Of a stretch of DNA of 64,000 nucleotides, positions 22,443-25,700 are shown in pieces. The DNA lies in assembly GCA_965263295.1 (NCBI GenBank), contig OZ253665.1, forward strand, positions 1,024,001 through 1,088,000, read 5' to 3'. The translations under genes were made by a program, and so were the position numbers. The notes beneath the pieces are model-generated. The model searched no databases, had not been told where the DNA came from, and saw only the letters and a list, made by a program, of their open reading frames with translations. Within the stretch, counting starts at the first letter, position 1; each line of letters begins with the position of its first letter. The DNA is from Spirochaetia bacterium. GTDB lineage: Bacteria > Spirochaetota > Spirochaetia > SP-2023.

Positions 22443-22763
22443 AGATTGCGAAGTCAAATATACAGAATTAAGGACACCGCGTAGAAAGTCAATAATTCTG
22501 ATAAAGAAAATCATTTTTTATCTCAAGATGATTAACTTATTACCGAATATAGGATATATCTTAGAGTCTTGTGCACCGGTCTGGCTCACAATAAAAGGAG
22601 GTGAATATCGGTTAAAAATACTTTTTTTGTAACCGTTTGCCACAGCGGCAATTTTTAGAAACGACTCTGAGAATTACCTTGAAGTCGTTTGTTTAACGTT
22701 TTCATTAGCGTTTAGGTAATTTATATTTTTAATTTTTTATATTTAATTTTAAGGAATTTCACA

Positions 22764-25700
22764 ATGAAAAACACAATAAAGAAAAAGTTTTTTCTAAATA
22801 CTGATATATATATATATATATATATATATATCAGTTCTACTGGCCGGATTAATATTTTCTTGCCAGGTCGAAGATTTTGACGATCCTAAGCCGACTGACT
22901 TGTCGAAGTTTATGGACAGTCACCTCGCTACTTTACAAATTTCGCTTGACGCAGATATTGCTACAGAAGAAGATGAAGATTTTGAAACTCAAATTTTAAA
23001 TAAAGTTGTAGATAAAGCCAATGAGGCGGTTGCCAATGGTGATTTATCACCAGACGCCAAGGATACTTTTAAGACCCGATTTACCAAGGAAATTTTATAT
23101 TTATCTGACTTAGTTGATACTGATTCGGATGAAAAAATTGACAAATGCACAGTCACAATTTCCGCCCACAACATGAGGAATTTGACCGGTTATGACTGGG
23201 CGCGAGAAAAGACTATCGAAATCAATACGGTCTCTTCTTCGATGAGTTTAACTGATCAATCTAGCGCTTCCTCCGAGCAAGTATCAGAAGAACGGTCTGG
23301 ACCTAACGAGCCGACTATGGGTGACTTCAGTCCGGCTTTACAGAAATTTGTCCCGACGACGGAGGGAGAAGGTCCGGGACCGAAGTCTAATAATAACAGT
23401 GGTGCTAAGATAGATTACGATAAATTAAAAGCTTTAAAAGAACTAGATGTTTCAGGAAAAGGCATAAAGTCACTGAAAGGAATAGAATATTTTATAGGTT
23501 TAGAAAATCTGAATTGCTCTAATAATCAGCTTACGGAACTGGATGTCAGTCAAAATACTAAGCTGAAATTGTTGAATTGCGATAATAACAAGCTCGCAAA
23601 ACTCGACGTCAGCAAAAATGAGGAGCTAGCATATCTGAATTGCTCTAAAAATAAAATTGCGAGCCTCAATATCAGCAAAAATAAGAACTTAGCATATCTG
23701 AATTGCCAGGAAAATGAAATTACAGAATTAAACATAAGTGGTAATCCGTTGCTTCAAAAAGATGAAACGAAATTATTGCATGATTCAGATGTAGTTGTAG
23801 AGGAAAGGCCCTCGCCATCTTCAGCGGCCAAAAAATCGATGTCGACGTCAGTAAGCAAGTCTGCAAGCGGCGGGGGAAGCGTTAAAATATCCAATTTTGT
23901 GAAAATTCCCGATGCTAATTTCAGGACTTATTTAAAAAATCTGGAAGAACTGAAGGATGCATTTATAGTTGACAAGATGGATCCCAATGCACAATCTGTA
24001 AAAGATTTAGATAAAATAAGTGTGCCAAACAAAGGCATAAAATCGCTGGAAGGCATACAATATTTTACAGGCTTAGAAAAGCTAGAATGCGATAGTAATG
24101 AGCTTGAACAACTGGATATCAGCAAAAATACTAAGCTGGAGAAATTGTCTTGCATTCGATGTAATCTTGATGAACTGGATCTCAGCCAAAATATTAATTT
24201 AAAGAATTTGAATTGCAATTGGAATCAGCTTGGAAAACTCAATGTCAGCAAAAATACTAAGCTGGAGGAGTTGTGTTGTGTCGAGTGTGGTCTAAGTGGC
24301 CTGGATGTCAGTAAGAATAAGATGCTAAAGATGCTTGGTGTCGCTAGTAATGAAGGGCTTGAGACCTTGGATGTCAGTAAGAATACTGGGCTGGAAGAGT
24401 TGTCTTGCGGTATGTGTAATAAGCTCCAAGGACTGGATCTCAGCAACAATAAGAATCTCAAGTTGTTGTCTTGCCCTTATTGTAATTTTAATAACCTGAA
24501 TGTCAGCCAAAATGCTAAGCTGGAGAAATTGTTTTGCCAGAATGGTGCTCTTAGCTCCTTGAATGTCAACCGGAATGCTAAGCTGCAGATGTTGGATTGC
24601 TCCAATAATACAATTGTTGAATTGAACATATCAAAAACCCTAGTAGGTAAATTGCCTTATAGTAAAAAAGAAAATTTTTGGGAAAGTCCAGAAAAATTGG
24701 CATGGAAAATGCAGCAGCTAAAGGTAGACTGCGGTGTTAAAATAACTGACTATTATTCTAAATTAAAACCAAAAAATTTTAAGAGACTTGGCAAGAAAAG
24801 ACCTCCAGATAAAGTAAAAAAATCTCAGATTAAAAATATTATTGATTCAGAATACTTGGAAGTGGATGACATTACGCTTGAGCCGGATAAAGATAAAGGT
24901 CAGTTAATAGTCCTTATTCAGAACCATGGAGATCCAAAGAAAATTCCTTTAGAAGGTTTTTACGATCTAAATGAAATAAACCTTATAGACAAGGTGAAAT
25001 CTTTGGTTCCTAGTGATTTTGGATCAATTGTCAGCGATCAGAAACTTCCAAGTGGAATAACAAAAGCTGACATTAAAGATCTTCAGGGTTTAGGTGCTTT
25101 GAAAGGTAAAGACATTCTATTGAATCATTATGACGAAACGGGTCAGTTGGTCGTCATACTTTTACATCATGGACCTACTAAATCCATTCTTTTGAAAAAT
25201 TTTAAAAATACGACTGGGGCTGGAGGAGCTCTTGATCTTAAATTTATGGAATATTTAAAGGGGAAATTGCCGGAGGATGCGTTTAAAGATGGCAAGATAA
25301 ACCCCGATGCACAATCCGTAAAAGATTTAGATGAAATAAATGTGCCAAACAAAGGCATAAAATCGCTGAAAGGCATACAATATTTTACCGGCTTAGAAAT
25401 ACTGGATTGCAATGGTAATGAGCTTGAACAACTGGATGTCAGCCGAAATATCAAGCTCAATTCTTTGAGCTGCGCTAAGAATCATCTTATTGAACTAGAT
25501 CTCAGCCAAAATACTGGGCTGCATTTCTTGTGGTGCAATGATAATAATCTCAAATCAATAGATGTGAGTAAAAATCGTTTTCTGCAGGAATTAAATTGCC
25601 AAGGGAATAGTATTACGGAATTGGACATAACGTTTAATGATTTGCTGAGAAGAAATCCCAGGGGTATAAAACGAGACGGAAATGTTACAATATTTGATTT

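Follow-up and report, generated by a model that had tools for sequence, protein, structure and literature searches.

Introduction

Switching of surface-protein genes by simple repeats has been described in several bacteria, and the following systems come closest to the present one. In Neisseria, CTCTT repeats in the leader-peptide coding region of the opa genes switch a multi-gene surface family by frameshift (PMC3960869), while in Helicobacter pylori CT dinucleotide repeats at the 5' end of oipA (hopH), hopZ and babA set the frame of adhesin genes by slipped-strand mispairing (PMC3960876). Dinucleotide tracts put BspA-like leucine-rich repeat (LRR) genes of Candidatus Mycoplasma girerdii out of frame in the consensus, with minor read variants in frame (PMC5476646), and promoter poly-TA tracts of 10-16 units, a handful per genome, are found at vmm and other lipoprotein genes of Mycoplasma mycoides (PMC3053259). 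Repeat-driven phase variation is also known in spirochaetes, namely in the tpr genes of Treponema pallidum, with poly-G tracts in promoters and, in tprA, a CT repeat that lies about 700 bases into the gene and has 3 or 4 units (PMC7864442, PMC3656149). The spirochaete papers that we found deal mainly with promoter poly-G tracts, and the literature searched, which lacks most subscription journals, yielded no account of AT tracts in the lipoprotein signals of spirochaetes. Here, we examined a perfect (AT)14 tract in the signal-sequence codons of a gene for a giant putative lipoprotein, located in a 64,000-nt window (the whole stretch of DNA analysed) of the genome of a Spirochaetia bacterium (assembly GCA_965263295.1, contig OZ253665.1, positions 1,024,001 to 1,088,000).

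We conclude, with a probability of about 86%, that this tract is a simple-sequence-repeat contingency locus acting as a phase-variation switch. The locus combines the structural hallmarks of such repeat-driven systems: an over-long perfect repeat, a frame-setting position, an intact downstream gene and a valid in-frame form. An earlier note on this DNA had proposed the same reading, which gains support from the placement of similar tracts across the genome and from length differences at two sister loci, one of which flips the frame.

Results

The tract sets the frame of a long gene

Placed after the true start codon and ahead of the lipobox, the tract determines the reading frame, and the allele as assembled encodes a 38-residue dead-end peptide. 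Coordinates without other label are window positions, and G000 denotes the genome under study. The features of the locus are as follows.

22560..22720, + strand: upstream leader (approximate bounds), common to seven family genes in the genome, with two predicted hairpins (BLASTN, alignment)
22751..22755, + strand: Shine-Dalgarno-like AAGGA, at a position kept in paralogs (sequence)
22764..22880, + strand: true start ATG 22764 and the 38-residue out-of-frame product, ending at TGA 22878-22880 (sequence; the N-terminus of paralog P0007 is near-identical and in frame)
22795..22797, + strand: TAA of the long frame, 5' of the tract, so that the long frame cannot begin upstream in its own frame (sequence)
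22804..22831, + strand: perfect (AT)14, the putative switch, coding for Ile and Tyr only in all frames and able to form a hairpin (sequence)
22834..22863, + strand: hydrophobic core and lipobox ending in Cys at 22861-22863 (sequence, paralog alignment, signal peptidase II gene)
22834..33618, + strand: long open frame past the tract, 3,594 codons and stop (sequence)
33673..33708, + strand: terminator-like hairpin and T run beyond the stop codon (read by eye)

On re-reading the sequence, every coordinate in the earlier note proved right, both for AAGGA, ATG 22764, the tract and the TGA after 38 codons, and for TAA 22795 in the long frame and TTG 22900 on the 3' side of the lipobox. Its estimate of a frame open for about 10.7 kb past the tract agrees with the 3,594 codons counted to 33618; one unit number in three is indeed in frame, and the figure of 3,618 residues for the restored protein follows arithmetically. 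Downstream of the tract the frame reads SVLLAGLIFSCQVEDF. The tract, the sole AT run of at least five units within the window, has a unit that is not a multiple of three and sits within the 5' coding region, where it determines the reading frame of the long gene. Among the six dinucleotide units tested, AT yields Ile and Tyr alone in every frame. The gene has a G+C content of 37%, versus 49% for the genome.

The lipoprotein pattern, namely a basic n-region, a hydrophobic h-region and a lipobox Cys, was recognised by pattern and hydropathy on natural in-frame paralogs. L2 and L6-C10 of the hydrophobic core and lipobox are invariant in all six aligned paralogs, and the genome carries a signal peptidase II gene (PF01252). 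The earlier note had the repeat itself encode part of the hydrophobic region; this stands for the front part of the h-region, while the strongest hydrophobic stretch comes after the repeat. In the shortest natural sister signals, the Ile-Tyr run makes up about half of the h-region. Natural in-frame signals range from 18 to 32 residues, and the export machinery thus evidently tolerates an Ile-Tyr run of variable length.

It has to be asked whether the protein might be made regardless: ribosomes could re-initiate at 22900 or 22912 once the 38-residue peptide is finished, or slip along the AU run, and the tract would then tune the amount instead of switching it. The stop at 22878 is only 20-32 bases 5' of these internal starts, gene callers start the gene at ATG 22912, and the AU run has a predicted hairpin of -16.6 kcal/mol. 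However, neither TTG 22900 nor ATG 22912 has a Shine-Dalgarno sequence, the 3,568-residue product from 22912 lacks an export signal or membrane anchor (top 19-residue hydropathy 1.25), and in-frame paralogs mark the upstream ATG as the real start, the N-terminus of the one at G000:18185 being almost identical to that of the window gene. We therefore consider synthesis by either route very improbable; the earlier note had named synthesis from another start as a possible refutation.

As to transcription and leader RNA, a promoter scan at the locus scored at or below chance level, and a structured RNA in the leader was unsupported (RNAalifold covariation term +0.66; no Rfam match outside the AT run).

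Long AT tracts are concentrated in export signals across the genome

Alternating-AT runs in the genome number 11,289 at 4 bp and fall geometrically to 7 at 10 bp; none is 11-17 bp long, and ten are found at 18-28 bp, i.e. (AT)9-14, against an expected 0.0002 as extrapolated from the short runs. Nine of these ten long tracts are in export-signal codons, at most 41 bases from an ATG. The genome-wide search for (AT)n tracts before lipoboxes that the earlier note had suggested was thus fruitful: eight of the ten precede a lipobox Cys (six in one group ending Phe-Ser-Cys, two ending Ala-Gly-Cys), and the ninth lies in another export signal, that of an iron-type ATP-binding cassette (ABC) binding protein gene. 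The nine genes belong to three unrelated gene groups (6, 2 and 1 members) and hence represent three independent targets, not nine events. As assembled, five of the nine signal tracts are in frame and the remaining four are not (with one in three expected, five or more would arise with P = 0.14), and in the three out-of-frame genes other than the window gene the downstream sequence is likewise free of stops and frameshifts. A crude scan returned 60 other or overlapping lipoprotein-like starts; a long tract is present in four of them and (AT)4-5 seeds in several, so that only a minority of lipoproteins is targeted.

The paralog at 932930 (P0003) has an interrupted tract and is in frame; it also carries a long pentapeptide (Ser-Glu-Asp-Gln-Pro) repeat stalk (G000:C1:931600-932930), so that changes in size may come on top of on/off variation. 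The signal of a homolog outside the study genome (P0024, from a 131-kb ENA contig) is free of repeats.

The tenth tract (G000:C1:96351-96376) is located just 5' of an EamA transporter gene. Stops between the two preclude a frameshift action, and a promoter-type switch is possible; a promoter scan at this tract scored at or below chance level. Other repeat types were also noted. A (CTGCT)84 array (G000:C1:694411-694830) lies within a minus-strand glycosyltransferase-like gene (labelled by eye) whose halves are in different frames as assembled, and is probably a second, pentamer-type switch. In addition, (ATT)9 (G000:C1:2198468) and five ATT units (1651778) are found about 70 bases 5' of two genes that belong to another lipoprotein family and have almost identical signals.

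A second spirochaete lineage has the same layout

The window sits in a single 2.41-Mb contig (49% G+C, 92.6% complete). The genome encodes three FlaA genes, none being found in 14 control genomes, and in a release-factor tree (FastTree, one gene) it falls among spirochaetes, on a long branch with three congeners. (AT)8 is absent from all three congeners (89-94% complete, 1-5 contigs), and none of their examined (AT)5-7 runs is in signal codons. One congener has an (AT)7 in a glycosyltransferase-like frame (G002:C1:1086938), in frame as assembled.

Across the class, 26 of 301 genomes, G000 included, have an (AT)9 run. One locus was examined in each of the 25 others; most were intergenic, and the start-tract-lipobox layout was found in a single genome, G069. 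This genome belongs to a different family from G000 (release factor 51% identical, separate branch). It gave 34 anchored matches, for which 30 loci were fetched and reduced to 26 distinct tracts after removal of four duplicates. As many as 23 of the 26 lie between an ATG and a lipobox Cys, and just two of these 23 are in frame (P = 0.007 versus one in three, for genes that are paralogous and in an assembly of unaudited quality). Only one of the 23 proteins has matches in G000, none of them at tract loci. In two other genomes of the genus of G069, none of five tracts shows the start-tract-lipobox layout. This patchy distribution fits a parallel origin, without proving it.

The three G069 tracts outside lipoprotein signals comprise one at the 5' end of a frame that we take to be fucosyltransferase-like, one out of frame after the start of what is presumably a DNA-methyltransferase-like gene (both labels going by motifs), and one left unexplained. 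In other spirochaete genomes, long AT tracts were observed just 5' of genes; several directly follow a TTGAC(A) box, and one precedes a lipoprotein gene. These upstream tracts are candidate promoter-spacing switches.

Tract length differs between assemblies at sister loci

Sister loci were compared by looking up 22 sequences by identity, 17 of which were present in the protein collection; tract lengths were deduced from the protein sequences, assuming unchanged flanks. In G000 the ABC binding protein gene has 13 units and is out of frame, the gene being called from a GTG past the tract (P0014); its counterpart on a 37-kb ENA contig (P0015) starts at the upstream ATG, has about 6 units and is in frame, which amounts to an off-to-on flip. 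The lipoprotein locus 2330208 has 9 units in G000; a strain variant (P0005, from a 550-kb contig) has about 13, shows four other residue changes and also differs by 2 bases upstream of the tract. At both loci a third copy is called from an internal Met (P0013 and P0004, respectively). Locus 722810 is in frame in G000, and the call for its cluster mate P0010, from a 258-kb contig, begins at an internal Met, like the call of the window gene from ATG 22912.

For the window gene itself, five public runs contain the stretch, all in the form of contigs and none of them listed as RNA; in the four runs compared, the listed contigs break at the tract, and the comparison skips 22795-22839. Contigs of runs X1 and X2, which may represent the source sample, match the assembly without substitutions on both flanks. 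Strain-variant contigs have 18 changed codons in 22972-23820 (from the 19 table rows shown for this stretch, 34 further rows not being among them), 14 of which are non-silent, with no stop; two indels, of 21 and 3 bases, were seen in the unique part. The absence of stops and these indel sizes agree with a gene whose frame is maintained past the tract. In run X4 (depth about 3.6), strain differences are concentrated in the linker that follows the N-terminal domain (23227-23344), and nearly all of them change residues.

Could the 14 units simply be a base-calling artefact, almost every cell having the gene in frame? Base calling is known to struggle at long dinucleotide runs, and the single-contig assembly is probably of long-read origin, as we infer. 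All four out-of-frame tracts are one unit off an in-frame length, yet a period of three makes this true of any out-of-frame length. To gauge the assembly, we considered its 1,255 homopolymers of at least 7 bases: 634 lie well within long frames that run on through them, versus eight that are frameshift-like, the rest being unclassed, although dinucleotide runs may fare worse than homopolymers. The flanks matched without substitutions by the X1 and X2 contigs also argue against an error, which would moreover leave unexplained both the near-confinement of long tracts to signal codons and the 4- and 7-unit differences between assemblies. Assembly error, another of the refutations foreseen in the earlier note, is thus weak, and we regard it as unlikely, with a small residual chance.

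Equally small is the chance we give to slowly varying microsatellites, where the observed allele would be a fixed loss, or early pseudogene, rather than one state of a high-frequency reversible switch. All observed variation is between assemblies and mismatch-repair genes are present, as this explanation would have it; against it, the 10.8 kb downstream of the tract is devoid of stops and frameshifts, as are the other three out-of-frame genes, and long tracts are restricted to a functional gene class in two lineages.

Several observations nonetheless weigh against a phase-variation switch. The differences between assemblies at sister loci are strain-level variation, not switching within a clone, and the internal-Met calls may also reflect the choice of the gene caller or the end of a contig. 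The tract of P0002, which comes from another contig, is as long as that in G000, and both P0002 and P0012 end in frameshift-like tails, which marks error-like contigs among the sister alleles. Gaps of 1-2 bases occur at 23908-23969, where they fall at the end of a contig or in contigs aligned to repeated LRR sequence at 85% likeness. Both mutS and mutL are present, the strain being no obvious repair-deficient mutator. Other 5' alleles of the window gene were found neither in a pattern scan of JGI metagenome contigs (0 matches) nor in protein searches covering 30-2000 residues, proteins above 2,000 residues being outside the search; the latter gave three matches at 158-506 residues, all sister genes, and none at 507-2000 or 30-157. 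Cluster look-ups for two other out-of-frame genes returned single-member clusters.

The encoded protein carries InlJ-like LRR blocks

The protein downstream of the signal has three kinds of region.

22864..23250, + strand: N-terminal domain of about 130 residues, defining a lineage-specific lipoprotein family (alignment)
23460..30350, + strand: eight capped blocks of cysteine-containing 21-residue LRRs, InlJ-like, approximate bounds (Pfam LRR_4; 35 motif matches, 8 cap motifs)
25040..33615, + strand: about 15 Lipoprotein_17-like repeats, set between the LRR blocks and making up the C-terminal stalk, approximate bounds

The N-terminal domain has seven matches among 1.84 billion representatives, all in this family, and was not found in any of the five other genomes of the order searched, two of which have LRR matches only. 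Its structural model (predicted local distance difference test, pLDDT, of 70.7) has no clear fold match, the best having Z 5.6 and a root-mean-square deviation of 4.0 over 107 aligned residues. Sister genes join this common domain to differing repeat modules. The best solved relative of the LRR blocks is PDB 3bz5 (E 2.9e-42). The NCBIfam InlJ model NF033187 scores 699 bits versus a cut-off of 1700, the likeness being confined to the LRR blocks, and membership of internalin J was accordingly rejected. Nor does the protein belong to the BspA/TpLRR class, since Pfam gave LRR_4 and, weakly, LRR_EndoS, with no BspA-type LRR at E 0.001. The Lipoprotein_17 region contains a 261-bp tandem repeat at 32346-33142.

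Spirochaete lipoproteins can be periplasmic or surface-exposed. Judging from its domains, the protein most likely has an adhesin or host-binding role at the surface.

Other repeats in the window

Three further repeats were observed in the window. A short repeated intergenic element at 33755-34142 resembles repetitive extragenic palindromic (REP) elements, its 11-base core occurring 99 times in the genome. Two adjoining tandem arrays (13 bp x 7.5 and 14 bp x 5.5) at 9837-10039 lie at the divergent start of aminopeptidase N and homoserine acyltransferase genes. Finally, (CCAG)5 at 4124-4143, the only 5-unit tetramer run in the genome, is within a 494-residue open reading frame without Pfam match.

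Discussion

A phase-variation switch at this locus would operate as follows. Polymerase slippage, perhaps aided by a hairpin of the self-complementary AT run, would alter the number of units. One length class in three would give the ribosome a complete signal, with an Ile-Tyr run of a length that is tolerated as its front half; the protein of about 3,600 residues would then pass through Sec, receive a lipid at the Cys and undergo cleavage by signal peptidase II, so as to display its InlJ-like LRR blocks on a stalk of repeats. With a tract of either other length class the protein would not be made, which would save a very costly product and hide the antigen. Nine or ten independent tracts would turn the population into a mosaic of surface lipoprotein sets. 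Such tracts probably arose from short Ile-Tyr-Ile codon runs present in the signal peptides of the lineage, and (AT)4-5 seeds are found in the signals of related lipoproteins.

On a wider scale, we consider it about an even bet that a dedicated (AT)n switch in lipoprotein signals constitutes a genome-wide combinatorial system of surface variation, which would have originated in parallel in at least two distant spirochaete lineages. AT might be favoured as a unit that codes for Ile and Tyr only and can grow from h-region codons, and G069 would then exemplify antigenic variation without recombination, few members being shown at once.

These findings extend signal-sequence frameshift switching to lipoproteins of uncultured spirochaetes and point to the proteins, the 3,600-residue InlJ-like LRR protein among them, that these organisms vary, presumably in response to pressure from hosts or phages. 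They also reveal an annotation trap, in that out-of-frame alleles called from an internal Met resemble cytoplasmic proteins. The two lineages offer a testable case for the parallel evolution of a contingency system from Ile-Tyr codons.

Among known proteins, Listeria InlJ shares with the window protein its blocks of cysteine-containing 21-residue LRRs; the latter differs in having an N-terminal lipid anchor and eight LRR blocks interleaved with Lipoprotein_17 repeats, and is about four times longer. Among known switches, opa relies on a pentamer and concerns outer-membrane beta-barrels of Betaproteobacteria, as opposed to an AT dimer encoding Ile and Tyr in the lipoprotein (signal peptidase II) signals of a spirochaete. 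In H. pylori, the hop genes use a CT unit (Leu/Ser) and encode Hop beta-barrels, not lipoproteins, and the T. pallidum tpr genes likewise concern outer-membrane proteins rather than lipoprotein signals. Ca. Mycoplasma girerdii is uncultured and host-associated and, as here, has LRR surface proteins as targets; however, this wall-less Mollicute has eight different repeat motifs and LRRs of the TpLRR (BspA) rather than the InlJ type. M. mycoides resembles the present genome in its AT unit, similar tract lengths, low number per genome and lipoprotein targets, but its tracts act on transcription from promoters, whereas nine of ten tracts here are coding and act on the frame. The mechanism is thus textbook, as in opa and the H. 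pylori hop genes, and the novelty lies in the AT unit in spirochaete lipoprotein signals, genome-wide in two lineages, and in a giant InlJ-like target.

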